A stretch of DNA of 64,000 nt from Deltaproteobacteria bacterium (GTDB taxonomy: Bacteria > Bdellovibrionota_C > UBA2361 > SZUA-149 > JAITKM01): positions 222,818 to 286,817 of the forward strand of contig JAITKM010000007.1 in the NCBI GenBank assembly GCA_031278395.1, in the 5' to 3' direction. Each line of letters starts with the position of its first letter. The stretch's first letter is position 1. The position numbers and the translations under genes were made by a program. The notes beneath the pieces were generated by a model. That model was not told the origin of the DNA. It saw only the letters and a list, made by a program, of their open reading frames with translations, and made no database searches. Below, piece after piece: positions 35,187 to 64,000 of the stretch.

Positions 35187-35369
35187 AGAATGACCGCATT
35201 TGGTGTGGCTAATAACTTGGCTGTCGTTCCATCTATTAACTATTTTGGTTTAGTTAAAATAAAAATTTCAATTGTTATGTTTTTTAACTCTTCGGGCTGG
35301 ACAGCTGAAAACCTGGTATTATCAAATTTGACTAAAAAATTATTTTTCTATATAGCCCTACTCGCAAAG

Positions 35370-35444
35370 GCGAGAGTAATTCAGTGGCAGAATGCAAGCT
35401 TCCCAAGCTTGACGTCGCGGGTTCAATCCCCGTCTCTCGCTCCA
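35370..35444 (+). tRNA. tRNA-Gly (anticodon CCC)
   Basis: Hand-folded cloverleaf. Acceptor stem GCGAGAG/CTCTCGC. D-stem ATTC/GAAT. Anticodon stem CAAGC/GCTTG with loop TTCCCAA. T-arm GCGGG-TTCAATC-CCCGT. Encoded CCA. Confidence 0.8.
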
Positions 35445-35446
35445 AT

Positions 35447-36856
35447 TCACGACAAGCCATATTCCTTAATTTTATACAATAAGGCACGATGGCTGATTTC
35501 TAAAAGTTTTGCCGCTTGGGTCCGATTGCCTTTTGTTTGTTCTAAGGCTTTGAGAATCAACGCTTTTTCTATATCTGTAGTATGTTGCTTAATTGATAGA
35601 TTCTTGGAGTTTTCAACTATGATTTGCTGAGTTAGAGGTATATATTGAGAATTTTGTTGAGTTAAAATTTTATTCGATAAATCTTTAACCGTAATAATAT
35701 TACCTGTTTTTAAAATCATCGCCTGCTCAAGACAGTTTTCCAACTCTCTAATATTACCTTGCCAATTGTAATTAATGAGGGCTTGTCGCGCCGTAGCTTC
35801 AAGAGTAGGTCGGGCAATCTTAAACTTGATAGCCTGTTTTTCCAAAAAATAATCGAGCAAAAGATTAATATCCCCCCGGCGTTCGCGTAGCGCTGGAACT
35901 TTAATGTTAATCACATTCAGACGATACAATAAGTCTTCTCGAAAATTTCCCTTTTGAACTTCCTCTTCTAAATCTTTTAAAGTAGCAGTAATAATTCGCA
36001 CGTCAATCGGAATTTGCTCTGAACTGCCAATTGGAGTAATAACTCGTTCTTGTAAGACTCTCAGCAGTTTTACCTGCAAGAGAAAAGGCAAATCGCCAAT
36101 TTCGTCAAGAAAGATTGTGCCATTATTGGCTTCTTCAAATAAACCTTTTTTGTCTGACTTAGCATCAGTAAAAGAACCTTTTTTATACCCAAATAATTCA
36201 CTTTCTAACAGCGTTTCAGGAATAGCGCCGCAATTGATCGCAATAAATTTATGGTCTTTACGAGACGAATTTTGATGAATAGCTTTGGCAATTAATTCTT
36301 TACCAGTTCCAGACTCACCAGTAATTAAAACTGTCGTATTAAAATTAGAAATTTTAGTAATCACCTCAAAAATTTCTAATATTTTCGGGTCTTGAGAAAT
36401 AATTTCCGAAAAATTAGATTTTGGCTGTTGCTGAACCTGTGGATTAGTATCTTTAAAATTTAAATGGCGCCTATTTTTCTTTAAAATAAAAAGTAATTCT
36501 TCTGGGCTAAAGGGTTTAGTTATAAAATCAACTGCCCCTAGACGAATAGCTTCTAAAGCTAAATCTGAAATGCCACTTGCGGACATCGCAATAATTGCCC
36601 CTTTAAATTCTGATTTTTGAAGATATCTTAAAAAGGTTAGCCCATCGATTTGAGGCATCTTTAAGTCAATTAAGAGAAGGTCAAAGTCGTTCTTGTCTTT
36701 GAGAGTTTGTAAAGCAGTGCAAGAATCTGAAGAAGTTGTTATCTCAAATTGAAACGCACTATCAGCTTTAGTGTTTTCGTGATTTAAAATGGCTCTTAGC
36801 GATTGAGTAATTGTTTCTTCATCATCTAAGATAAAAATTTTTTGTATTATTTTCAT
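35447..36856 (-). CDS. Sigma-54-dependent response regulator (NtrC/FlrC/FlgR family enhancer-binding protein)
   Basis: REC domain. AAA+ sigma-54 interaction domain (GESGTGKELIAKAIH, GAFTGA-like GSFTDA, ESELFGY). C-terminal Fis-type HTH. The ORF-track start at 36883 is a TTG within the leader motif, so the ATG at 36856 is preferred. Confidence 0.9.
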   Translation of the reverse strand: MKIIQKIFILDDEETITQSLRAILNHENTKADSAFQFEITTSSDSCTALQTLKDKNDFDLLLIDLKMPQIDGLTFLRYLQKSEFKGAIIAMSASGISDLALEAIRLGAVDFITKPFSPEELLFILKKNRRHLNFKDTNPQVQQQPKSNFSEIISQDPKILEIFEVITKISNFNTTVLITGESGTGKELIAKAIHQNSSRKDHKFIAINCGAIPETLLESELFGYKKGSFTDAKSDKKGLFEEANNGTIFLDEIGDLPFLLQVKLLRVLQERVITPIGSSEQIPIDVRIITATLKDLEEEVQKGNFREDLLYRLNVINIKVPALRERRGDINLLLDYFLEKQAIKFKIARPTLEATARQALINYNWQGNIRELENCLEQAMILKTGNIITVKDLSNKILTQQNSQYIPLTQQIIVENSKNLSIKQHTTDIEKALILKALEQTKGNRTQAAKLLEISHRALLYKIKEYGLS

Positions 36857-43855: not shown

Positions 43856-45310
43856 ATGATTAAAGAATACAATATTACAGATATAGTTTTAGAATTAGAG
43901 CGATGTAATTTATTACCAACTATCGTTTTTAGAACTTCGCGTTCACAGTGCGATTCAGATATTTTAAAGGCGGTAAATAACAAAGCCTTAGCTTTGCCTA
44001 TCTCGCAGCAGCGAGCTATCAAAGATGCGGTCTATGAAATAGCCAAAAATTATGAAATGGAGTTGGAATTAATTACTACCCATCCACATTATAGTAGCTT
44101 AATTAAAACTGGCGTAGGGGCGCATCATGCGGGGCAACTCTTAATGTGGCGGTTGTTGCTTGAGGAGTTAATGTCATTGGGAGTGTTAAAAGTTCTTTGT
44201 GCAACAGGAACTGTCGCGGCTGGTGTTGACTTTCCAGCTCGCACAACTGTGGTAACAGCCCATACGAAGCGTGGGCATGACGGTTATAATAAGTTACTTT
44301 CAACAGAGTTTCAGCAGATGTCGGGTCGAGCGGGGCGTCGTGGTAAAGATATAGTTGGTTTTTGTGTAGCAGCGCCCTCGGCGTTTTGTGATGCTCGTGA
44401 ATTATTGAAGTTGTCTAAAACTCCGCCAGAGCCGTTGATGTCCGCATATTTTCCAAGCCCTAGCACAGTTTTAAATTTGTTACGCTATCGCAATGTTGAT
44501 GATTTACGTTTTACGGTGGAGCGGAGTTTAGCCAGTTTTGCCGATAAGAAGCAGGCTGTAATTTTGGAGAAAGAGGCGGCTGAGGTTGATGAAAAAATTA
44601 AAGTTAAAGAAGATCTAGTTGGGCGCTTGAAAGGACATCAGAAAGACAATGAAACTAAGGCGCTGACTAAGTTAATCAAGAAGTCTAAACGACTACACAC
44701 GCAAGCTGAGGAATTAAAGAATAAGCAAGGGACGTTGTTAGATCGAACGATAGCCGGTCTGCGGCAATTAGGGCATTTGAATAATTTTACCCTTTCAGAT
44801 AAGGGGTATTGGAGCGCTAATCTTTGCACAGGTATGGTTTTGGAATTAGCTGAAATAATAGAGGCGGGATATTTTGATCATATTAGTCCAGAGCGGTTAG
44901 CGACAATTTTGGCAGGTATTTGTGGTGAAGATCATCGTCAGTATTTAAAGGCGAGTAAATCTCCGATTTCAGATGCTGATTTTCAAGGGTTAAATGAAAT
45001 TTTAAAGCGTGTTCAAGACATGAACTTACCGGGAGCGCCGACGGAGATAAATGTTATAGTTCCTAATGCGGCATACACTATGGAAGTTTGGTTGCAAGCT
45101 GAGAACTGGCAGGAATTTCGGGCGATGTTGTTGTTGAATGGCGCAGCAGAGGGGGATGCTGCTAGATTAATTACCCAAACTGCAGAGCATTTAAATCAGC
45201 TCAAACGGCTTGACGAGAAGTTTCCAAAATTAGCCAAGCGAGCCGAGGAAGCCCGTCGCAGAATTTTAAGACCGCCTCTTACAGAAGCAATTAATTTAGA
45301 TAGCGTTTAA
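43856..45310 (+). CDS. Ski2-like helicase, C-terminal (RecA2 + winged-helix/ratchet) half, as a separate ORF
   Basis: Motif IV region IVFRTSRSQCD. Motif V/VI (ATGTVAAGVDFPARTTV; QMSGRAGRRG). Has its own leader motif and ATG. Confidence 0.75.
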   Translation: MIKEYNITDIVLELERCNLLPTIVFRTSRSQCDSDILKAVNNKALALPISQQRAIKDAVYEIAKNYEMELELITTHPHYSSLIKTGVGAHHAGQLLMWRLLLEELMSLGVLKVLCATGTVAAGVDFPARTTVVTAHTKRGHDGYNKLLSTEFQQMSGRAGRRGKDIVGFCVAAPSAFCDARELLKLSKTPPEPLMSAYFPSPSTVLNLLRYRNVDDLRFTVERSLASFADKKQAVILEKEAAEVDEKIKVKEDLVGRLKGHQKDNETKALTKLIKKSKRLHTQAEELKNKQGTLLDRTIAGLRQLGHLNNFTLSDKGYWSANLCTGMVLELAEIIEAGYFDHISPERLATILAGICGEDHRQYLKASKSPISDADFQGLNEILKRVQDMNLPGAPTEINVIVPNAAYTMEVWLQAENWQEFRAMLLLNGAAEGDAARLITQTAEHLNQLKRLDEKFPKLAKRAEEARRRILRPPLTEAINLDSV

Positions 45311-46583: not shown

Positions 46584-47069
46584 ATGGATTTAGAACTATT
46601 AAATATTTTTACACAATCAGCGGTGAGTGTGATTGAAACAATGGCATTTACAAAAGTTGCTGTTGGCAAACCAGTCTTGAAAGTAGAGAAGGTTACTAAC
46701 GGGGATGTTACTGGTATTATTGGGCTTGCTAATTCAGAGTTTAAAGGGACTTTAGTGATTAGCTTTGAGGCTGAAGCAATAATTGCAGTGGTCAATAACA
46801 TGTTGGGTAGCAATTACACAGAAATGAGTAGCGATGTTATTGATGCAGTTGGCGAAATTACAAATATGATTTGTGGCGCTTCTAAACGTTCTCTTGCCGA
46901 TAGTAAACAGATAATCTTAGATATGGCTTCGCCAACTACTATAATTGGTAGAGATTTAATGATTAATTTTCCGGGTAGCTTACCAGTGGTAGAAATTCCT
47001 TTTGCAACAGAAAAAGGTAAATTTATAATTGATATTACGCTAGGCAAGGAACATCAGTCATTAATTTGA
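46584..47069 (+). CDS. cheX: CheX/CheC-family chemotaxis phosphatase-like protein
   Basis: ~160 aa with a CheX-like conserved block (VGEITNMICGASKRSL). Confidence 0.55.
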   Translation: MDLELLNIFTQSAVSVIETMAFTKVAVGKPVLKVEKVTNGDVTGIIGLANSEFKGTLVISFEAEAIIAVVNNMLGSNYTEMSSDVIDAVGEITNMICGASKRSLADSKQIILDMASPTTIIGRDLMINFPGSLPVVEIPFATEKGKFIIDITLGKEHQSLI

Positions 47070-48617
47070 GAATTTACCTAGCATCACAATTATTTTTGAG
47101 GGGTGGTGAATTACTGCAAAAATAAACGGACGTTCAGCAATAAAAGAAAGCTGTTCAGTATTTTCACTCAAGTTTGTGTTTGCTGCAGTAGCAGTGCCTT
47201 TATCTATAGTAGTTAAATTAGCTTGTTGAATATAAGGATTTAAAAATAAATCAGTAGTGCCGGTAATGCCGGATAAATCAGCTTTGCCGGTAAAGATATC
47301 TGACACGCCTAGTTTTGTTAATTTTTCTTTGACATTAATTCTGGAACTAATTTTTAATTTTGGCACTTTAATATATAATTCCTTCTCGGTGAGAGAAGTT
47401 TCGATAGTATTAATTAGTTCAGCTGATAAAATATTTTCAAGTTCTGCAATGGACATACTGGCATTGGGTAAAATAAATAACAGAGCCAACTCTTGCTCCG
47501 CTGGTTTTAATTCCAGAGCTTGAAAATCTTGGTTAGCAAGATATAAATAATTATTCTTACCAGTAATATAATGTAGCCTTTTTGTTCCAGTGTTATGGGA
47601 GGTAAAAGTTCCTTCGGTTGAAGTAAAATTTTTGTCAAAGGTCAAAGTTAGATTAAACAGATCAGCAATTACCATTCTAGTTGAGATTTTAATTTCTTTA
47701 TTAAAAAGATTTTCAATGTTTTGTTCCGATTTGCTAAAGACCCAGTCATTGATTCTTTTTTGGGTGAAATCAATATCGTTGAAGAAGTCCGATTTATCAA
47801 AATTTAATAGAAAATAATCATTTAGATAGTCATTAAACTCTTTTTGGATGTAATTATTGTCATTTGCCCAGATATTAGAACGATAATAGGAACTATCTTT
47901 ATTGGCTAAAAATATATTGTTAATAGAATTAAAGGTTTCTTTAAAACGCACGCCAATACTTTTTAGATTTTTATCTAGACCTAAGATGTCCTGCATTTGT
48001 TTTTTAGTTTCGTTTTTACTACCAGCGTATAAAGCTGCTAGGTGATGCATTATACTATAAGTTGCCACAACAAAAGAGTCTTCTTTTGTTGCCATGGTTT
48101 GGTAAAGCTTAAGAGAAAATTGGTTATTAGCTGTGGTGATGTCGAAATTTTCTAATAGTTGATCTTGTAAGGGAATAATTTTTTCTTCTTTAACTGGCTC
48201 AGTGATTGTGGCAGATGATTCTACCTCTAGACTATTAGTAGTTGATTTTGAGATTCTAGAGTTTTTAGGCTTGACTTCTTCAAACTGGATATTATTTTTA
48301 CTAACAGCTTGTGCAGTTAGTGGGGCTAGAGATAACGAACAAGCCAGGATGATGAGTAGTATGATTTTGGTTTTATGTTTTAAAACGTCAGATAGAATGT
48401 GCTGAGTAAGTTTATTGATTAGTTTTTTATTAACTGAGACTTCTTCTGCAACATCATAAATGGCACAGATAAGTTCGCCTATAGTGGTATTAAGACTAGA
48501 TTGCGATTGATGGTTTGCTGCGTTTTTTCCCACTTTTATAGGTTTGATTGGCAGTGTGTGGCTAGGTTTAGCATGAGGATTAATTTTTTTCCTATTACTG
48601 TTAGTAACTTTTTCCAT
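47061..48617 (-). CDS. Serpin-family protease inhibitor with ~150-aa N-terminal extension containing a hydrophobic anchor
   Basis: C-terminal serpin signature (FIAERPFIFAVIHHPSKIIVMLGKFSN). Hinge/reactive-centre-loop region upstream. N-terminal hydrophobic segment IILLIILACSLSLAPLTAQA. Confidence 0.8.
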   Translation of the reverse strand: MEKVTNSNRKKINPHAKPSHTLPIKPIKVGKNAANHQSQSSLNTTIGELICAIYDVAEEVSVNKKLINKLTQHILSDVLKHKTKIILLIILACSLSLAPLTAQAVSKNNIQFEEVKPKNSRISKSTTNSLEVESSATITEPVKEEKIIPLQDQLLENFDITTANNQFSLKLYQTMATKEDSFVVATYSIMHHLAALYAGSKNETKKQMQDILGLDKNLKSIGVRFKETFNSINNIFLANKDSSYYRSNIWANDNNYIQKEFNDYLNDYFLLNFDKSDFFNDIDFTQKRINDWVFSKSEQNIENLFNKEIKISTRMVIADLFNLTLTFDKNFTSTEGTFTSHNTGTKRLHYITGKNNYLYLANQDFQALELKPAEQELALLFILPNASMSIAELENILSAELINTIETSLTEKELYIKVPKLKISSRINVKEKLTKLGVSDIFTGKADLSGITGTTDLFLNPYIQQANLTTIDKGTATAANTNLSENTEQLSFIAERPFIFAVIHHPSKIIVMLGKFSN

Positions 48618-49013: not shown

Positions 49014-49988
49014 TTAAGTTAAAAATAAATTCGGAGGTATATGTTCAAGAAATTCTCCACCCGGCATAAACATTCCAGCCGGAAACAAGATATTACATAA
49101 ACCATTCTTTATTGTTTTATAAGCTTGCTTTGCAATTTGCGTCAGAGATCTGAAATAAGTGATATATGTTTTACGTAATTCGATATTGGAACTGATACAG
49201 AGCATTCTTTTGCTATATTTGGCTGACTTAAATTTTTTATTTATATGTTGAGTTTTAAGTTTTTTTGCTCCGACGACCCCTTTGGGATGTTCTAGTTTTT
49301 TCTCTTCTTCAATAACTTCCTTGATAATTTGATTATTTATTTCCTCAGGATTATTATCTTTATATTCAATAAATCCCTCCATCCAAGCATTAGGTTCTAA
49401 TTCAAAAGTGTGAAATATAGGTTTATCTCCGGCTAGGTTATTAATAAGTTCTTTTTGTTTTTTATCTGTCATTAAAGCTAAGTTGTTTATTTTATAAAAT
49501 TGCGAACGTTTTATCCAAACACATTCTTTTCTATATTCTTTCTTTTTAAACATACTCCAAGAAGAAAGTCCTGGATATTGTTCGATAGAGTTGACTAGAT
49601 CAGCAGAGGCAGGATTTTTATAAATATATTTAATAGTATCAATAACTTTGTCGTAGGTTAAAACTATTGGATCGTCAAATCCATCATTCCAGACGGTATT
49701 TTGTCGAATGCCACAGATTCTATTGATAGCAGAGGCTGATTCTAATTTTAAGAGTCTAATAAAGTTAGGTATATCTGCTGGGTTTCTCACAACTGCGAGT
49801 ATATGAAAGTGGTTAGACATAAAGACAAAGTGACAGATTGAGATGTTATACAAAGATTTAGCGCGTGCTAATATGCCTATTAATGCTGTATTGATTAGGG
49901 GGTATGCAGGAAATGGCAAATCTTTTTCAACGCGTGAGGTTATAAATAATACTGTATTTTCAACATATAATTTTCTTTTCTTAGCCAT
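49014..49988 (-). CDS. HUH-motif Y1 tyrosine transposase (IS200/IS605 TnpA / REP-associated RAYT-like) with ~170-aa C-terminal extension
   Basis: HUH motif NHFHILAVV. The Y/NP/LV/WSS block IKYIYKNPASADLVNSIEQYPGLSSWSMF is typical of Transposase_17/RAYT proteins. Confidence 0.7.
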   Translation of the reverse strand: MAKKRKLYVENTVLFITSRVEKDLPFPAYPLINTALIGILARAKSLYNISICHFVFMSNHFHILAVVRNPADIPNFIRLLKLESASAINRICGIRQNTVWNDGFDDPIVLTYDKVIDTIKYIYKNPASADLVNSIEQYPGLSSWSMFKKKEYRKECVWIKRSQFYKINNLALMTDKKQKELINNLAGDKPIFHTFELEPNAWMEGFIEYKDNNPEEINNQIIKEVIEEEKKLEHPKGVVGAKKLKTQHINKKFKSAKYSKRMLCISSNIELRKTYITYFRSLTQIAKQAYKTIKNGLCNILFPAGMFMPGGEFLEHIPPNLFLT

Positions 49989-58486: not shown

Positions 58487-59281
58487 TCACTTAGCAAAAT
58501 TAATAAATGGGACGCTGTTACCCAACATATATTGCGGCAAGATACCATTCCATTTTTGAACAGCTTCGTATTGAACTAGGCTAGCATTTTGCGTAAGTGC
58601 ATTAGCTCTAATACGCATGGATTCTGCTTCGGCTTGTGCGGAAATAATTTTTTGATTAGCCTCTTCTTTTATTCGCAAAGTATTGTTTTGAGATTCAATT
58701 GCCCTTTGAGTTGCGACAACTTTTGCTTCAATTGCCTTTTCAAAAACCTCACTATAGTCAATATTCGTGATTGATACAGCTTCTAAAATTATAGGATAGC
58801 CAACAAAACTTTGCGTTAAGATCTCCTTAATATCCGCCGCGCCTTTATCACGATTGGCAATTAACTCAACCGCATCCCACTTACCAAGAGCAGCTTTAGT
58901 CGAGTCTTGCACTCTTTGCATGATAATCTTTCTAAACCAGTCCTGCCCATATTTTTCATATGTTTCAACAATTTTTGACTCCTCCAGATGAACATTGATG
59001 GCAATTTTAATTTCCGCTTGTTGAACATCCTTAGTATAAACATTAGTTACTTCTTCGTGTTTGATAAGCTTAATATCGAAAACTTTAATCTCTTGAATTA
59101 CTGGAATAAACAAAACCAGCCCAGGCTTAAGCATTTCTTGAGAAGCTCTACCAAAAGTTAGTTTCACCCCACGCTCACCTTCGTCAATTGTAGTAAATGG
59201 TTTTAAAAACAACAATGCTAGCAAAATAAATGCTACAACAAATAATTTTTTTTCAAGGTTCAAGTCCACCATTTTCGCCAT
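58487..59281 (-). CDS. SPFH/band-7 (prohibitin/HflC-like) membrane protein
   Basis: N-terminal TM anchor, SPFH domain pattern and a C-terminal coiled coil. Confidence 0.8.
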   Translation of the reverse strand: MAKMVDLNLEKKLFVVAFILLALLFLKPFTTIDEGERGVKLTFGRASQEMLKPGLVLFIPVIQEIKVFDIKLIKHEEVTNVYTKDVQQAEIKIAINVHLEESKIVETYEKYGQDWFRKIIMQRVQDSTKAALGKWDAVELIANRDKGAADIKEILTQSFVGYPIILEAVSITNIDYSEVFEKAIEAKVVATQRAIESQNNTLRIKEEANQKIISAQAEAESMRIRANALTQNASLVQYEAVQKWNGILPQYMLGNSVPFINFAK

Positions 59282-59308: not shown

Positions 59309-59875
59309 CTACTGTAATATGTATGTTGTTAAATAATATAAATCATCGCTTTTGTTACGGGCTTTACCACAAACTACCTGAGCAGTTAGGCTATAACCAT
59401 TAGCTTCTGTTTGGAGAATATGGTATTCATACTGCGGACTACAGTCTCCAGAACAACGTTTATATAAATCTTTACCTTCCTGACCATTACCCTGTGAAAA
59501 ATCTGAAATCCAATCCAGCAAAGCGCTGTTGTTGTAAAAAGTTTTATTAGTATAGCTCAGCGGGGTTTTAGATGTTTCTGTGAAACGAGTAGCGCAGGAA
59601 ACGCCGGCAGCATCTGTTTTGCCTTCTAAAAAAGTCGTTGGGATAGAAGTGAAAATAATAGTTGCTTTTTCCTGACCAACTTTTGCAAGAGCTTCTGTCA
59701 GTAGTTGGTTGGATTTGAATTTAATAGAATTTTCACTATTCCAGAGATTGCTTGTAATACTAGCTGTTGCTGTAACTTGATTAAGTTTAGTTTTCTTTAA
59801 AGTTTGAGCCGTTGTGATATTTAACGCCAAACAGGTAATGAAAGTGAGAATAATTAATTTAAAGATGTTTTGCAT
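59309..59875 (-). CDS. Secreted hypothetical protein
   Basis: Signal peptide (LTFITCLALNITTAQT). Four Cys. Downstream of and co-oriented with the LRR protein. Confidence 0.45.
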   Translation of the reverse strand: MQNIFKLIILTFITCLALNITTAQTLKKTKLNQVTATASITSNLWNSENSIKFKSNQLLTEALAKVGQEKATIIFTSIPTTFLEGKTDAAGVSCATRFTETSKTPLSYTNKTFYNNSALLDWISDFSQGNGQEGKDLYKRCSGDCSPQYEYHILQTEANGYSLTAQVVCGKARNKSDDLYYLTTYILQ

Positions 59876-60092: not shown

Positions 60093-60203
60093 TGGTATGG
60101 GGTTACTTTGATATTTAGATATCTAAAAAAATAACAAATAAATTAAGTATATTATAGTATTTAATACACTGAAAATATAAGAAATAAAGTAACCCTGTAC
60201 CAG
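60093..60203. repeat. MITE/BIME-like palindromic element, full copy E, overlapping the 3' end of the LRR gene
   Basis: Arms TGGTATGGGGTTACTTT and AAAGTAACCCTGTACCAG. The last ~28 codons of the LRR ORF are read from this element. Confidence 0.8.
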
Positions 60204-63200
60204 TGGGAATATGATGAATATGACCGCCAACGTATTCCGGGAGCTGCAATCCTTTTGCTGAGGTAAGCTTATTAAGATAAATATCTTTGCCAACGTATTC
60301 CGGGAGCTGCAATCCTTTTACTGAGGTAAGATTCCTAAGATAAAGATTTCCGCCGACGTGTTTCGGGAGCTGTAATCCTTCGGCTGAGGTAAGATAATCA
60401 AGATAAAGATCTCCGCCGACGTATTCCGTGAGTTGCAATCCTTCGGCTGAGGTAAGATTACTAAGAACAAGATTTTTACTAACGTATTCCGGGAGTTTTA
60501 TTCCTTTGGCTGAGGTAAGCCTACTAAGAAAAAGATCTCCGTCGACGTGTTTCGGGAGCTGCAATCCTTCGGCTGAGGTAAGATTATCAAGATAAAGAGC
60601 TCCGCTGACGTGTTTCGGGAGCTGCAATCCTTTTGCTGAGGTAAGATTACCAAGATAAAGAATTCCGCCGAAGTGTTTCGGGAGCTGTAATCCTTCGGCT
60701 GAGGTAAGACTAGTAAGATCAAGATATCCGCCAACGTATTCCGGGAGCTGCAATCCTTCGGCTGAGGTAAGATTATTAAGATTAAGACCTCCGCCGACGT
60801 GTTTCGGGAGCTGCAATCCTTTGGCTGAGGTAAGATCATCAAGAAAAAGATTTCCACTAACGTATTCCGGGAGTTTTATTCCTTTGGCTGAGGTAAGATT
60901 CCTAAGATCAATATGTCCGTAATAAATCTTAGCTCCCTTAAATATTTTATTAAATGATTTCACAGTGAATTTTTGTTCATTAATATCCTCATCTAAACGT
61001 ACCTCCTCTGGTTTACAATTGAAAATTTGACTCAAATCTTGTTTTTTATTTCGATTTTCAAGAAGTTCTTTAATTCTTGGATCGTTACTATAGCCAAATC
61101 CTTCAATTCTTCCGTCAATTTCGTAGAGGAATCTTAAATCTTCTACAGTCAACTCCTCTCCTGTTTTTGCACGATTATCTATGTCTGTAAGCCGCTGCAT
61201 GTCGGCGCTCCTTTTCCTGAAAACATCGGCTTCTCTGCCAAACTCTGCAAGTTTTTTATTAAGAGTTTCTTGCATTACAGGCTCAATATTCTGACTTGGC
61301 AAGATGCCACGAATTTCGCCAATTTTATTCTTGTTCATACGAATAGCTAAACGAGGTTGAACAAATTTACCTTGCTCATCTTTTGAGTAATAAACATAAA
61401 AATCACCACCTTGAATTTGAGTATTAGCTGTGCTTTGACCAGCTGTACACCAGCCGGTTCCCCTACCTTGTAAGGATTTCCAGAGCTCTTTGGCGTGCGA
61501 CATGTTGCCTTGCGAGAATTTTCTCCATTCGCCTTCAATGCTTAAGTTATTTTCTTGAGCAGCTAAGGACTTCTGAATTAATTCGGCATACAGCTTAGGA
61601 AAATTTTTTTCAAAATCTATGATAGCTTGCGGATTTTTATTACCTTTGGCGATTCCCTCGTAGATATCATAAATTTGCGCCAGCGCTTCGCGGTTGATAT
61701 CCGGAAACGGCGCTACTGTGTTTTTAGTGCGTTTCTTAAATTTTCCTTGCTTTTTGTCAAATTGCGAAAGACTGATAAGTTGATTCCAAGCGTAAAACTT
61801 AAACCACGCTGGATATACAGCATCGCTGGAAGCAAGATAGTCAATGATATTATCAAGCGATTTCTTCTGGTCGTTGATAACGGTTTCTATCATTCTTTTC
61901 CTTGTTTCGGGAGTAATTTCAATTGTTCCATGCCCTTGCTCACGAGCAATTTTCTTTTGGAGTTCAATTTCGGATTCCGGGTAATTTTCAGGTTTTAACA
62001 GAAGTTGGTCGTAAATTTTATCTCGGTATACTTTTCTAAAAGTTTTTCTATCGAGAAAAATATTTTCTAATCGATTAATATATGTATCAATTTTTGGCCC
62101 GGGTTCGTTTGGAACATTTTTACCTGTAACTAGTTTTTTACTTTTAACAGCTTTTTTAACCGGAGCTGAGTTATGTAGTTTGGGGTCCTTCAAATGAATA
62201 GGATGTTTGTTGTTACCGCGCTTTTCAGCTTTGATATTAGGTAAGGCTTGTTCAATGTGGTAATTATCGGAAGTTTGGTGTGAAGCAACCGAGCTTACGA
62301 TATCGTTTCCTATGGCCTTTAAAGGAGTTTCTATTACTTCCACTTTAATCCCGAAATTATTCGCTTTGATAAAATCAGCAAATTCTCTCGCTTCTTTAAC
62401 CTTATTTTCACTGCACAACTGCGCTAACTTTCGCACCACCGCATCGTTGACTTGCGGGTTATCTAAATTCAGCTCTAATTTTTTATTTTTTGCAGATTGA
62501 AGCAACTTAGCCACATTCTCTAAATTACCTTTTTCAATCGATTGGCTTACGCCTTTATAAAACGACTCGGTATTTTCCTGCTTGCTTAATATTCCATATC
62601 CCTTCGCTGCATTGATAACTGCTGCATCCAAATTACCATCAGCTACAGCAGCACTAATTTTACTTGCTATATTCTTCTTAACCTGCACCTGCACTAGCTT
62701 GCCACCAACGTGTAACATTACCAGCAACGTCGCTGTCTGTGCCAGTGCATCACCTTTTTGTCCCTCAGAGGCCGCAATCCCACTCTCGGAGACCAGCACT
62801 ACATTACCTAAACTTCCTAAAACTCCTACCGCACCTCCTGTTAAAAACGATCGACCAACCTCGTTAAAATTTACTCCCGTGCCATACCGCACGTCTGACC
62901 CAACTTGACTAACAAGATTGCTTGATGCAAAAGCCGAAGCTGTCGAAAGACCACCAATGCCTCTTGTACTCAGTTGTCTCACAATTGATTGCTGTATCTC
63001 AGGCGAAAAATTAGCTTTAGATAATGTCACTGCAAGCATTTCCGGACCCTGACTGGCTAGCCATTTGGTATTGCAAAGCACACTTACTCCGTTAGCTACT
63101 TTGAAAAAAGTAGCATTAGCTAAACCTTCCACGGCATTGTCTGCTATAGACTTTGACAAGTCAAAATTACCTGCCACTCCGCCTCCTTGAACTGCCGCAT

Positions 63201-64000
63201 CTGTCAAATCAATAGCAAGCCCTGCTGCACCACTAACGCCAGCTGTTGCTCCAAACACTATCGTGCCCCCTGCTACTGTTCCTCCAGTTACACCCAATGA
63301 CGGAAGAAGATACACTTGCCCAGTAGCAGTGATCGCTATTGCCGCCGTCATCGTTCCAACAAACTTGATAGAGCTTGCCCACATTTCTTGCGAACACACA
63401 TAGCTGTCAAGGTATTTGTTACTTTGGCTAAACTCTTCGCTAAGGCGGGCATACTTATGAGTGTCGCGATTTAATATTCCGTCCATTTCAAGATAGCGAT
63501 CAAACAATACGTCTTCACCGCGAATTGCTTTATACCGCGCATTAAACTCAGCGTCGGATAAACTAGGAGCGGCTTTTGCTAACTCAGTAATGGATTGCTG
63601 GACACGCACTTGTTCTTCCAGCAAAGTTTGGGCTGATAACGGCAGAGTTTTGAACCACGAGGCATCACGATAATCTTTTGCATTAGCAGAGCCGTTGGTT
63701 AGTATATACATAGCTGCGTCGGAAAGAATTAAATTGCCTTCGGTCTTTAATTTTTCTGCTAGTCCGCCTAACCAGCCTTGCTTTTCCCACGCGTCGGATA
63801 TTAGTTGTGAACGTCCCTGATTAATATAAGTCAGACGCCGAATATCTCTTTCACGGGTTGTACGTAGCGCTTCTGCTAACGCTTCAGGAGAAAGCAAAAT
63901 TTGCTGTGTTGAGGAAGAGGTCGGCTCGACAGATGCTTGTAAAGCTTCCAACGCTTTGGCGTCAAAAAATTCTAACACAGAATATTTATTCCGTAGTTGC
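60115..64000 (-). CDS. Very large secreted/surface leucine-rich-repeat protein (bacterial 20-residue LRR type), 5' end beyond the window
   Basis: About 12 tandem 20-aa repeats NLTSAEGLQLPKHVGGxLYLD (LxxLxLPxxV type) at the C-terminus. Upstream there is a Gly-zipper-like hydrophobic region (GVTGGTVAGGTIVFGATAGVSGAAGLAIDL) and long alpha-helical regions. The frame is open to the window edge. Confidence 0.8.
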   Translation of the reverse strand, partial: QLRNKYSVLEFFDAKALEALQASVEPTSSSTQQILLSPEALAEALRTTRERDIRRLTYINQGRSQLISDAWEKQGWLGGLAEKLKTEGNLILSDAAMYILTNGSANAKDYRDASWFKTLPLSAQTLLEEQVRVQQSITELAKAAPSLSDAEFNARYKAIRGEDVLFDRYLEMDGILNRDTHKYARLSEEFSQSNKYLDSYVCSQEMWASSIKFVGTMTAAIAITATGQVYLLPSLGVTGGTVAGGTIVFGATAGVSGAAGLAIDLTDAAVQGGGVAGNFDLSKSIADNAVEGLANATFFKVANGVSVLCNTKWLASQGPEMLAVTLSKANFSPEIQQSIVRQLSTRGIGGLSTASAFASSNLVSQVGSDVRYGTGVNFNEVGRSFLTGGAVGVLGSLGNVVLVSESGIAASEGQKGDALAQTATLLVMLHVGGKLVQVQVKKNIASKISAAVADGNLDAAVINAAKGYGILSKQENTESFYKGVSQSIEKGNLENVAKLLQSAKNKKLELNLDNPQVNDAVVRKLAQLCSENKVKEAREFADFIKANNFGIKVEVIETPLKAIGNDIVSSVASHQTSDNYHIEQALPNIKAEKRGNNKHPIHLKDPKLHNSAPVKKAVKSKKLVTGKNVPNEPGPKIDTYINRLENIFLDRKTFRKVYRDKIYDQLLLKPENYPESEIELQKKIAREQGHGTIEITPETRKRMIETVINDQKKSLDNIIDYLASSDAVYPAWFKFYAWNQLISLSQFDKKQGKFKKRTKNTVAPFPDINREALAQIYDIYEGIAKGNKNPQAIIDFEKNFPKLYAELIQKSLAAQENNLSIEGEWRKFSQGNMSHAKELWKSLQGRGTGWCTAGQSTANTQIQGGDFYVYYSKDEQGKFVQPRLAIRMNKNKIGEIRGILPSQNIEPVMQETLNKKLAEFGREADVFRKRSADMQRLTDIDNRAKTGEELTVEDLRFLYEIDGRIEGFGYSNDPRIKELLENRNKKQDLSQIFNCKPEEVRLDEDINEQKFTVKSFNKIFKGAKIYYGHIDLRNLTSAKGIKLPEYVSGNLFLDDLTSAKGLQLPKHVGGGLNLNNLTSAEGLQLPEYVGGYLDLTSLTSAEGLQLPKHFGGILYLGNLTSAKGLQLPKHVSGALYLDNLTSAEGLQLPKHVDGDLFLSRLTSAKGIKLPEYVSKNLVLSNLTSAEGLQLTEYVGGDLYLDYLTSAEGLQLPKHVGGNLYLRNLTSVKGLQLPEYVGKDIYLNKLTSAKGLQLPEYVGGHIHHIPTGTGLLYFLYFQCIKYYNILNLFVIFLDI
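60215..60900. repeat. Tandem ~60-bp DNA repeats (≈12 units) encoding the LRR units
   Basis: Unit ...CCGACGTGTTTCGGGAGCTGCAATCCTTCGGCTGAGGTAAGATT... repeated with >85% identity. Generates a spurious 119-aa ORF in another frame (60498-60857). Confidence 0.85.

Follow-up and report, generated by a model that had tools for sequence, protein, structure and literature searches.

The last gene of a 64-kb stretch of DNA (the window) is a real gene in which an orphan, partly hydrophobic front half is fused to a conserved domain and to an array of 21-residue repeats. Relatives of the conserved domain are targets of diversity-generating retroelements (DGRs), and the residues that vary most among the repeats surround a predicted strand. 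We tentatively interpret the product as a membrane-associated recognition protein, from a family in which one core is joined to exchangeable binding modules that evolve rapidly.

The window holds 1294 codons of the gene, and the frame is open to the window edge with no upstream in-frame stop. The initial annotation had placed the 5' end outside the window and proposed that the full gene be obtained. Both points are settled by an exact (100%) database match, LBE20_02030 (here, P0001), from an NCBI metagenome-assembled genome (MAG) labeled "Deltaproteobacteria bacterium." The complete protein has 1585 aa, of which 291 aa, encoded by the 5' 873 nt, lie outside the window. P0001 is known from a single contig of one assembly. 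The original description of a giant repeat protein with a hydrophobic Gly-rich region also holds, and the array is modeled as an LRR-like solenoid. Features are listed in Table 1.

Table 1. Features of the P0001 gene, in order of translation, and of the two genes downstream
Feature	Coordinates	Strand	Residues or codons	Basis or remarks
Big CDS	60115..64000	(-)	codons 292-1585 of 1585 (3' 82%)	ORF list and translation; stop at 60115-60117
N-terminal extension (887 aa), part in the window	62212..63999	(-)	aa 292-887	orphan; mostly helical, hydrophilic
Gly/Ala/Thr-rich hydrophobic segment 1, candidate two-helix membrane hairpin	63205..63375	(-)	aa 500-556	Kyte-Doolittle 19-residue windows 1.4-1.6
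Hydrophobic segment 2, candidate third membrane helix	62773..62850	(-)	aa 675-700	Kyte-Doolittle peak 1.78
Conserved core	60913..62211	(-)	aa 888-1320	begins KHPIHLK, corresponding to the N-terminus of stand-alone relatives
Core β-sheet subdomain	61252..61539	(-)		invariant columns: GTGWCTAG (61438-61461), GDFYVYY, PRLAIRM, IGEIRG
Degenerate lead-in unit, ends HIDLRN	60898..60960	(-)	aa 1305-1325	unit alignment; in confident solenoid model
11 tandem 63-bp / 21-aa repeats	60205..60897	(-)		Tandem Repeats Finder, unit table, AlphaFold, family-wide entropy
Aromatic, hydrophobic C-terminal tail in AT-rich DNA	60118..60204	(-)	29 aa	replaces helical cap found in about a quarter of relatives
Cys-containing protein with signal-peptide-like N-terminus	59309..59875	(-)	188 aa	translation
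SPFH/Band 7 protein	58487..59281	(-)		PF01145, E 2.4e-29; starts 27 bp past the 188-aa gene; context only

The conserved core and its relatives

The core belongs to a family with 2578 representatives at E ≤ 1e-3, for which searches of Pfam, NCBIfam, PADLOC and the PDB (by sequence and by fold) returned no match. AlphaFold models it with a pLDDT of 77 and a pTM of 0.70. The listed invariant residues are all present in P0001, which is itself the alignment reference. In 106 of 110 relatives, a start motif of the KHPIHLK type lies within the first 10 residues. Because the core thus stands at the protein N-terminus in relatives, the P0001 gene is a fusion. The initial annotation overlooked this core, which is preceded by the hydrophobic region and followed by the repeats and which links the gene to DGR targets of Patescibacteria.

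The closest core relatives are Patescibacteria proteins of ~610 aa that are 55-58% identical over >90% of the core and that have all invariant motifs, including a KHPLHIK start. The core is homologous to DGR targets, since these close relatives are encoded next to reverse transcriptase and Avd genes. In a set of 80 species-representative genomes, at least 24 loci have a DGR reverse transcriptase next to the family gene, and about 28 have Avd. One locus (L003) has a variable-region/template-region (VR/TR) pair in which 23 of 23 mismatches fall at template adenines. DGRs are very abundant in Patescibacteria, and targets of clade-2 DGRs in CPR bacteria were described as having no recognizable domain (Roux et al. 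2021, PMC8144416). The conserved N-terminal region of the Patescibacteria targets is a discrete, widespread domain.

Like these targets, P0001 has the core and a fast-evolving C-terminal module predicted to bind a ligand. The modules themselves differ, as the CPR proteins carry a VR-bearing domain of ~180 aa (presumed C-type lectin, CLec), whereas P0001 ends in repeats, and none of the CPR targets has its 887-aa extension and hydrophobic segments. The 64-kb window contains no reverse transcriptase, Avd or TR. A DGR-type domain is found in 113 of the 120 closest core relatives; by contrast, when the C-terminal modules of the top 150 representatives are classified, 91 are repeats, 5 are of the DGR type and 54 are other sequences. 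Since mutagenic retroelements target relatives of the core in ultrasmall bacteria, P0001 looks like a fast-evolving recognition protein.

The family occurs in organisms that depend on other cells. Sec-type signal peptides are present in 26 of 144 complete representatives (18%), including one from Pseudobdellovibrio. P0001 has no N-terminal signal peptide, and most Patescibacteria members have neither a signal peptide nor a membrane segment, both in the sequences collected here and in those described previously (PMC8144416). Given this feature of the Patescibacteria members, an intracellular role is equally possible.

Sequence comparison indicates that the β-sheet subdomain of the core is an autonomous module that also occurs in a phage polyvalent protein. 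It was detected in an LPD38-bearing ORF of 3290 aa on a viral contig (L085), with an hhalign probability of 99.1% and 41% identity, and a distant homolog is present in a second sequence (L086). Only this subdomain of ~75 residues (GTGWCTAG/GDFYVYY/IGEVRG) is common to the large polyvalent protein and P0001; the phage protein has no counterpart of the remaining core, the repeats or the extension. The window itself has no phage or plasmid context. LPD-domain proteins of phages and conjugative elements reportedly play a role in phage-host conflict.

This relationship is among the observations that would fit P0001 being an intracellular anti-phage sensor-effector similar to NLR proteins. In such a system, the solenoid would sense an invader protein, the core would transduce the signal or multimerize, and the N-terminal helices would permeabilize the cell's own membrane, causing abortive infection. 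The order of hydrophobic N-terminus, core and repeats mirrors that of effector, hub and sensor, most family members are without export signals, and core relatives are diversified by DGRs. DGR-diversified proteins of multicellular bacteria have been proposed to act as antigen sensors (Doré et al. 2024, PMC10907252). The resemblance to NLR/STAND sensors is one of working principle only (a putative effector-like N-terminus, a conserved center and variable C-terminal repeats). In contrast to those sensors, the core contains neither a P-loop nor any other NTPase signature and matches no STAND-like fold, and PADLOC models match neither P0001 nor its relatives. Moreover, the gene is surrounded by chromosomal housekeeping genes (FtsK, RarA, an MCP and a LOG-family protein), and the exported representatives noted above are difficult to reconcile with an intracellular sensor. 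We therefore regard an anti-phage function of this kind as unlikely.

The N-terminal extension

No relatives of the extension were found among families, PDB entries or metagenome sequences. Long N-terminal extensions occur in only two of 275 fetched family members, P0001 and a protein from a Bdellovibrionales MAG (P0056), and the two extensions are dissimilar. The latter protein carries a signal peptide, and one of its segments is hydrophobic and rich in Gly/Ala/Val.

The Gly/Ala/Thr-rich hydrophobic stretch that had been noted in the N-terminal half of P0001 is present, with 19-residue Kyte-Doolittle peaks of 1.4-1.8. Because the scores reach only these values, the segments could instead be buried in a soluble domain. 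The proposed resemblance to glycine zippers is not supported by comparison with composition-preserving shuffles. Four motifs of the form (G/A/S)xxxGxxxG or GxxxGxxx(G/S/T) occur between aa 500 and 730, a chance-level count given that shuffled sequences contain 2.8 ± 1.8 and 32% of them reach four. P0056 contains no such motif. The domain search that had been suggested for toxin or translocator families in this half of the protein yielded nothing in Pfam, NCBIfam, PHROGs, PADLOC or PDB sequences.

The repeat array and the C-terminal tail

Tandem Repeats Finder reports the array at 60224-60919 with a period of 63 bp, 11.0 copies, 80% matches and a score of 811, and detects a higher-order period of 189 bp (83%). 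Tandem repeats had thus been recognized correctly in the initial annotation, but their length of ~60 bp and 20 residues is corrected to 63 bp and 21 aa by this analysis and by the protein register. The consensus of the unit is LTSAEGLQLPKHVGGxLxLxN. In pairwise comparison, units share on average 81% of their nucleotides and 64% of their amino acids, and invariant residues carry identical codons across units. The longest exact repeat inside the array is only 42 bp, so short reads are not forced into collapsing it during assembly. The copy number of the repeats could plausibly change. Identical units are found within 11 of 140 repeat-bearing relatives, which is evidence of recent duplication of units.

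The differences between P0001 units cluster at positions 16, 18, 20 and 21, where pN/pS is about 21, versus 0.8 elsewhere; these values compare paralogous units inside one gene rather than orthologs. Across the family, variability likewise peaks at positions 16, 18 and 20, as judged by entropy in 760 units from 140 proteins. The four positions flank an xLxLx strand, an arrangement like that on a binding face.

AlphaFold models the array as a solenoid (pLDDT about 95, pTM 0.86) with two short strands per unit. When the model was compared with the PDB by using Foldseek, nearly all of the 31 matches were LRR or closely related repeat solenoids, all of them non-significant (best E 0.26, TM-score ≤0.42). 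YopM (1g9u) and the LRR domain of IpaH9.8 (6loj) are among the top four, with TM-scores up to 0.35-0.42 and non-significant E values of 0.7-0.8 (probability 0.13-0.33). No Pfam LRR model matches P0001 even at E ≤ 10, the sole Pfam match (Glutaredoxin2_C) is a spurious sum over repeats, and NCBIfam gives no match. A repeat-bearing relative (P0379) exceeds the Pfam cut-off for FNIP, with LRR_EndoS just under threshold.

The initial annotation had assigned the repeats to the YopM/IpaH type. An LRR-like solenoid is predicted by the AlphaFold model; the class is not supported. Units of the "Bacterial" LRR class follow LxxLxLxxNxLxxLPxLPxx, in which the Asn is conserved and LP occurs twice (Matsushima et al. 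2010, PMC2946307). All 11 units of P0001 have 21 residues, rather than 20 or 22, and each has a single LP in place of LPxLP. Neither LP register brings the Leu positions into line, and there is no Asn ladder (position 21 is Asn in 5 of 11 units). An IpaH protein would also have a NEL E3 ubiquitin-ligase domain, whereas only the 29-aa tail follows the repeats here. A second class covered in the same study, IRREKO, has 21-residue units in which LxxLxLxxNx(x/-) is nested at a 10/11 periodicity. P0001 units are equal to these in length, and 10 residues separate their LxL pairs (positions 7/9 and 17/19). Their Asn positions, however, are unconserved, and the modeled strands (positions 12-13 and 17-18) are 5 residues apart, in contrast to the 10-11 proposed for IRREKO. 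P0001 resembles YopM/IpaH, IRREKO and FNIP proteins in its modeled solenoid of the right size and its LxL strand, here with hypervariable flanking residues, and differs from these classes in having no in-register LxxLxLxxNxL core.

These comparisons largely refute membership in the YopM/IpaH class. They also weigh on the proposal that P0001 is a secreted effector or toxin of that class, in which a glycine-zipper translocator at the N-terminus would enter the membrane of a target cell. The ranking of YopM and IpaH9.8 among the structural matches, the Gly-rich hydrophobic region and the dependence of family hosts on other cells are all compatible with such a role. Nevertheless, those matches are not significant, the units are incompatible with the consensus, no LRR, NEL, toxin or translocator family was detected, and zipper motifs are no more frequent than expected by chance. 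In addition, the examined parts of the window contain no secretion-system genes. A YopM/IpaH-type effector is thus highly improbable.

A helical cap (..E[KR]xxL[RK]xKYPxLxIV) terminates 46 of 204 relatives, and other endings are diverse, one being a clean C-terminal membrane tail. In P0001, the array stops within unit 11 and gives way to AT-rich DNA that has no remnant of the cap in any frame; the resulting tail resembles read-through, and its pLDDT is <50. Together with the orphan extension and the occurrence of P0001 on a single contig, this ending raises the question of whether the gene is a decaying fusion, a family member that a rearrangement linked to an unrelated ORF upstream of it, and whose product is nonfunctional or only partly functional after loss of the cap. 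Yet an intact frame of 4.7 kb at about 36% GC would be very unlikely without selection, and the core retains every listed invariant residue. Most relatives likewise end without the cap, and P0056 represents a second, independent member with a long extension. Decay is therefore quite unlikely as an explanation.

Possible function and gene neighborhood

If P0001 is a membrane-associated recognition protein, as we tentatively propose, the lineage-specific 887-aa extension may tether it to, or insert it into, the cell membrane through its weakly hydrophobic Gly/Ala/Thr-rich helices. The core of ~430 aa would provide a constant activity or docking function. The C-terminal solenoid would bind a ligand through residues that are exposed to solvent on either side of L17-x-L19, namely x16, x18, x20 and also x21. 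In Patescibacteria, the binding module would be the C-terminal domain rewritten by the DGR; in P0001 and many others, it would be the repeat array, which could diversify by point substitution at face positions and by duplication, loss or recombination of units. The ligand would probably come from another cell (prey or host), at its surface or elsewhere, or from a phage. The P0001 gene is thus a candidate factor for recognizing prey, hosts or phages, and its array could differ among strains.

A broader interpretation, which we consider doubtful, is that the GTGWCTAG core defines a new recognition machine that always requires a rapidly retargetable module and is common to cell-dependent bacteria and phage polyvalent proteins. 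Its cell-dependent bearers would be Patescibacteria, Bdellovibrionota and possibly DPANN and Chlamydiota. The module would arise by two unrelated routes, either DGR mutagenesis of a C-terminal domain or recombination in an array of 21-residue LRR-like repeats of a type not described before, and P0001 would be a rare variant linked to an N-terminal effector or anchor that inserts into membranes. If true, this would provide a handle on the role of the otherwise featureless CPR DGR targets.

In P0001, the core known from DGR targets is combined with a wholly different variable module, the unannotated repeat, and some lineages join this core to signal peptides or, as here, to a long extension predicted to be membrane-associated. 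These combinations hint at the site of action and at a need for a retargetable binding surface. The core and the repeat are two unannotated families that merit profile models.

Downstream of the P0001 gene, the predicted order of a small secreted protein followed by an SPFH protein was confirmed. The 188-aa protein has no family match and no demonstrated tie to the big gene, from which its own gene is separated by an AT-rich gap of 240 bp.

Extent and surroundings of the large gene

The gene LBE20_02030 encodes P0001, a protein with four parts: an N-terminal extension (residues 1-887), a conserved core of ~430 residues beginning at residue 888, an array of 21-residue repeats and a 29-residue tail. 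The initial annotation predicted at least 1287 aa with the 5' end beyond the window, and this is correct. The reading frame is open through the last base of the window, and its 1294 codons there translate to a sequence identical to residues 292-1585 of P0001, which is 1585 aa when complete. P0001 was seen in the database once, on one 301,962-bp contig. The window is ordinary chromosomal DNA (~36% GC) that includes genes for FtsK, RarA/MgsA, Dus, glucokinase, CheX, a dCache-type MCP and a LOG-family protein.

The genes expected downstream, one for a small secreted-type protein and one for an SPFH protein, are also present. An AT-rich gap of 240 bp on the 3' side of the large gene is followed by a gene for a Cys-containing, 188-aa protein with a signal-peptide-like N-terminus, for which family searches yielded no match, and the SPFH/Band 7 gene starts 27 bp beyond it. 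No functional tie of either gene to the large gene was found. A polymorphic toxin, with the 188-aa protein as its immunity partner, was rejected because what P0001 has at its C-terminus is a repeat array rather than a toxin domain. The GC content of the core is 0.366, versus 0.359 for the genome. The extension and repeats have a higher GC content than both, but this follows their amino-acid composition and therefore is not evidence of transfer.

Other genes in the window are listed in the table. Serpins are uncommon in bacteria, and the DSHCT/NUC185 domain, which normally terminates eukaryotic and archaeal Ski2/Mtr4 helicases, is unusual on a bacterial chromosome. The Y1 transposase is the sole mobile-element signal in the examined parts of the window near the large gene, and the tRNA is the sole RNA gene detected in the window.

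Features of the window and of loci that hold relatives
Feature	Location	Strand	Description
Large gene, stop codon	window 60115-60117	minus	end of the P0001 coding sequence
Tandem repeat	window 60224-60919		Tandem Repeats Finder: period 63, 11.0 copies, 80% matches, score 811; 189-bp superperiod
Repeat array in register	window 60205-60897		eleven 21-residue units, consensus LTSAEGLQLPKHVGGxLxLxN; one degenerate unit before
Serpin	window 47061-48617	minus	518 aa; PF00079, E = 7.8e-62; ~160-aa N-terminal extension
DSHCT/NUC185 protein	window 43856-45310	plus	484 aa; C-terminal match, E = 8e-15
Y1 transposase	window 49014-49988	minus	IS200-like domain, E = 1.8e-7
tRNA-Gly (CCC)	window 35370-35444	plus	overlaps 3' end of mechanically listed ORF 35190-35630
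DGR cassette, Moranbacteria MAG	L003 9689-9826 and 10176-10313		138-bp VR/TR pair, 23 of 23 mismatches at template adenines; order: target gene, TR, Avd, RT
Family gene and flanking genes, contig labelled viral	L084 2883-5258 and 8777-9808		ClpB-like AAA+ protein, DGR-type RT, two serine recombinases
LPD38 polyvalent protein, 35-kb viral contig	L085 121-9993	plus	3290 aa; internal GTGWCTAG beta-subdomain; adjoining DUF927 protein gene
Distant core homologue and PcfJ-like gene	L086 5773-7917 and 9067-10602		714-aa homologue, ~1 kb from PcfJ-like gene; no homology detectable between the two domains

A conserved core and an orphan extension

The initial annotation overlooked the conserved domain that precedes the repeats. 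A HMMER scan of 1.84 billion representatives produced 2578 relatives, typically of 600-900 aa, that match only residues 888-1552 (the core plus repeats). With the core alone as query, 2778 proteins were found. The best of these (55-58% identity, ~610 aa) are all hypothetical proteins without a Pfam domain from Paceibacterota, Moranbacteria, Uhrbacteria and other Patescibacteria. Many columns of the core alignment are invariant, particularly in GTGWCTAG, GDFYVYY, PRLAIRM and E..RG. A word-indexed homology search with the whole protein had found only P0001 itself among the candidates scored, perhaps because words from the low-complexity repeats or the Gly/Ala-rich region crowded the relatives out; splitting the protein into parts recovered them.

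Pfam, NCBIfam, PHROGs and PADLOC yielded nothing meaningful, whether queried with the complete protein, with each of its three parts or with several relatives, and matches to Glutaredoxin2_C, BAR_2, GNAT_acetyltran and LeoB were dismissed as sub-threshold or as repeat artefacts. Neither phmmer nor a profile search found a relative among PDB sequences. P0001 is outside every curated family and belongs to a large, unannotated one.

The AlphaFold model of the core (pLDDT 77, pTM 0.70) has no significant neighbor among PDB folds (best E = 0.95), and weak matches to GNAT/HAT1-like folds are not trusted. Among BFVD viral models, one match is significant (E = 3e-7), to an uncharacterized phage protein. 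A weak BFVD match to a PcfJ-like fold (E = 0.37) led to a direct hhalign comparison, by which homology to PcfJ was rejected (probability 0.06%), and tblastn of the core against phage and plasmid collections gave no match. A beta-subdomain of ~75 residues in the core is an independent module: on a viral contig (L085) it occurs, at 41% identity, inside an LPD38-containing polyvalent protein. A distant homologue of the full core is on another viral contig, of 548 kb (L086). The finding would be of wider interest if the core proved to be a novel machine, for recognition or as an effector, that cell-dependent bacteria share with phages.

The motif KHPLHIK is within the first 10 residues in 106 of the 110 relatives that share it, versus residue 889 in P0001. 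Among the members fetched, only P0056, from a Bdellovibrionales MAG, also has a long extension, which shows no sequence similarity to that of P0001. P0056 carries a signal peptide as well as a hydrophobic stretch rich in Gly, Ala and Val. The fusion architecture of P0001 is nearly unique, and that the gene is a decaying fusion was considered but seems improbable. Toxin or translocator families had been proposed as a search target for the N-terminal half; no relative of the extension turned up in Pfam, in the PDB or in either of two metagenome scans.

The Gly-rich, hydrophobic character noted previously is real (Kyte-Doolittle 1.4-1.8 for residues 500-556 and 675-700), but the glycine-zipper motif carries no weight, because the 4 occurrences compare with 2.8 +/- 1.8 expected from composition alone. 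Clear Sec signal peptides are present in 26 of 144 complete representatives, including one from Pseudobdellovibrio, and so at least part of the family acts outside the cytoplasm. The best-supported reading, which we hold tentatively, is that P0001 is a membrane-associated recognition protein, in which the orphan extension, fused to the core, would be a membrane anchor or insertion region. It is unlikely that P0001 is instead an intracellular NLR-like sensor whose N-terminus disrupts membranes.

A 21-residue repeat with variable strand positions

The tandem repeats reported initially exist, and their DNA identity is indeed high (81%), but the unit is 63 bp and 21 residues rather than ~60 bp and 20 residues. 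Protein identity between units is only 64%. Codons of invariant residues are identical in all eleven units (CTT, ACC, TCA, GGA, CTC), and non-synonymous differences cluster at positions 16, 18, 20 and 21, where pN/pS between units is 21, versus 0.8 elsewhere. Across 760 units from 140 proteins, positions 16, 18 and 20 vary most (3.2-3.35 bits), as they do within single proteins (1.8-1.9 bits, versus 1.24 or less at every other position). Identical units, and therefore recent unit duplication, are found in 11 of the 140 relatives. The longest exact repeat inside the array is 42 bp in the one assembly, so a short-read assembler would not necessarily have collapsed it.

Assignment of the repeats to the YopM/IpaH type of LRR does not hold. 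The period is 21, there is one LP and no conserved Asn, and the unit consensus cannot be aligned with that of the "Bacterial" class, LxxLxLxxNxLxxLPxLPxx (PMC2946307). The associated proposal of a secreted YopM/IpaH-type effector with a translocator is very improbable. No Pfam LRR model matches P0001 even at E ≤ 10; the sole Pfam match to the repeats at this cutoff, Glutaredoxin2_C, is an artefact summed over units. One repeat relative clears the Pfam FNIP threshold and falls just short of that for LRR_EndoS.

AlphaFold, using 44 homologues, predicts a solenoid with very high confidence (pLDDT ~95 through the repeats, pTM 0.86). Each unit of the model has two short strands, one at positions 12-13 and one at 17-18. 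Of its 31 Foldseek neighbors in the PDB, nearly all are LRRs or repeat solenoids close to them, among them SHOC2, YopM, the IpaH9.8 LRR, GPIb-alpha, TLRs and NLRC4, and all are non-significant (best E = 0.26, TM-scores ≤ 0.42). The model thus points to an LRR-like solenoid whose 21-residue repeat is of a type not described before. Because x16, x18 and x20 alternate with buried L17 and L19, they are predicted to lie together on a single exposed side of the strand stack.

Exchangeable C-terminal modules

Across the family, one C-terminal module can take the place of another. Among the 120 closest core relatives, 113 carry a DGR-type C-terminal domain (presumed CLec), 2 a repeat array (3-23 units) and 5 another module or none; the corresponding numbers among the top 150 representatives are 5, 91 and 54. 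One of these other modules, in P0052, is a helical repeat of ~36 residues.

The neighborhood of P0174, a close relative, contains bAvd and a reverse transcriptase. Together, the 3' end of its gene and a copy in intergenic DNA make up a VR/TR pair of 138 bp, and each of the 23 mismatches is at a template adenine. Of the best 80 loci kept from a scan of species-representative genomes, at least 24 have an RT beside the family gene, and ~28 have Avd there. Roux et al. described clade-2 CPR DGR targets that lack a recognizable transmembrane or conserved domain (PMC8144416), and the RT-adjacent CPR members of the family are evidently these targets. CPR members have so far been known only as such featureless targets. 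No RT or Avd was found in the 64-kb window. A ClpB-like gene is less than 5 kb from the family gene in L003, as well as being present at L084.

The family plan would be a single core with interchangeable, fast-evolving binding modules, of which the hypervariable array is presumably one. A retroelement would diversify one module type; the other would diversify through exposed-strand substitutions and unit turnover. This pattern speaks for a binding module that follows a changing ligand. The family is found in Patescibacteria and Bdellovibrionota, and on single contigs labelled Chlamydiota and Nanoarchaeota. Every one of these taxa relies on other cells, from which a role in recognizing prey, host or phage may be inferred.

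About one quarter of family arrays are closed by a short helical cap (..KYPxLxIV). P0001 lacks this cap, and no remnant follows its array in any frame. Instead, the last unit breaks off into the 29-residue aromatic tail, which is encoded by AT-rich DNA. C-terminal endings of relatives are diverse, and one is a clean membrane tail. Many repeat proteins, of 200-500 aa, have no core and are sometimes clustered paralogues. P0317, P0324 and P0329, with nearby locus tags on one 811-kb contig of Candidatus Campbellbacteria, are paralogous repeat-only proteins that have a common 140-aa N-terminal domain but not the same number of units or the same face residues, an arrangement that resembles a contingency gene family.
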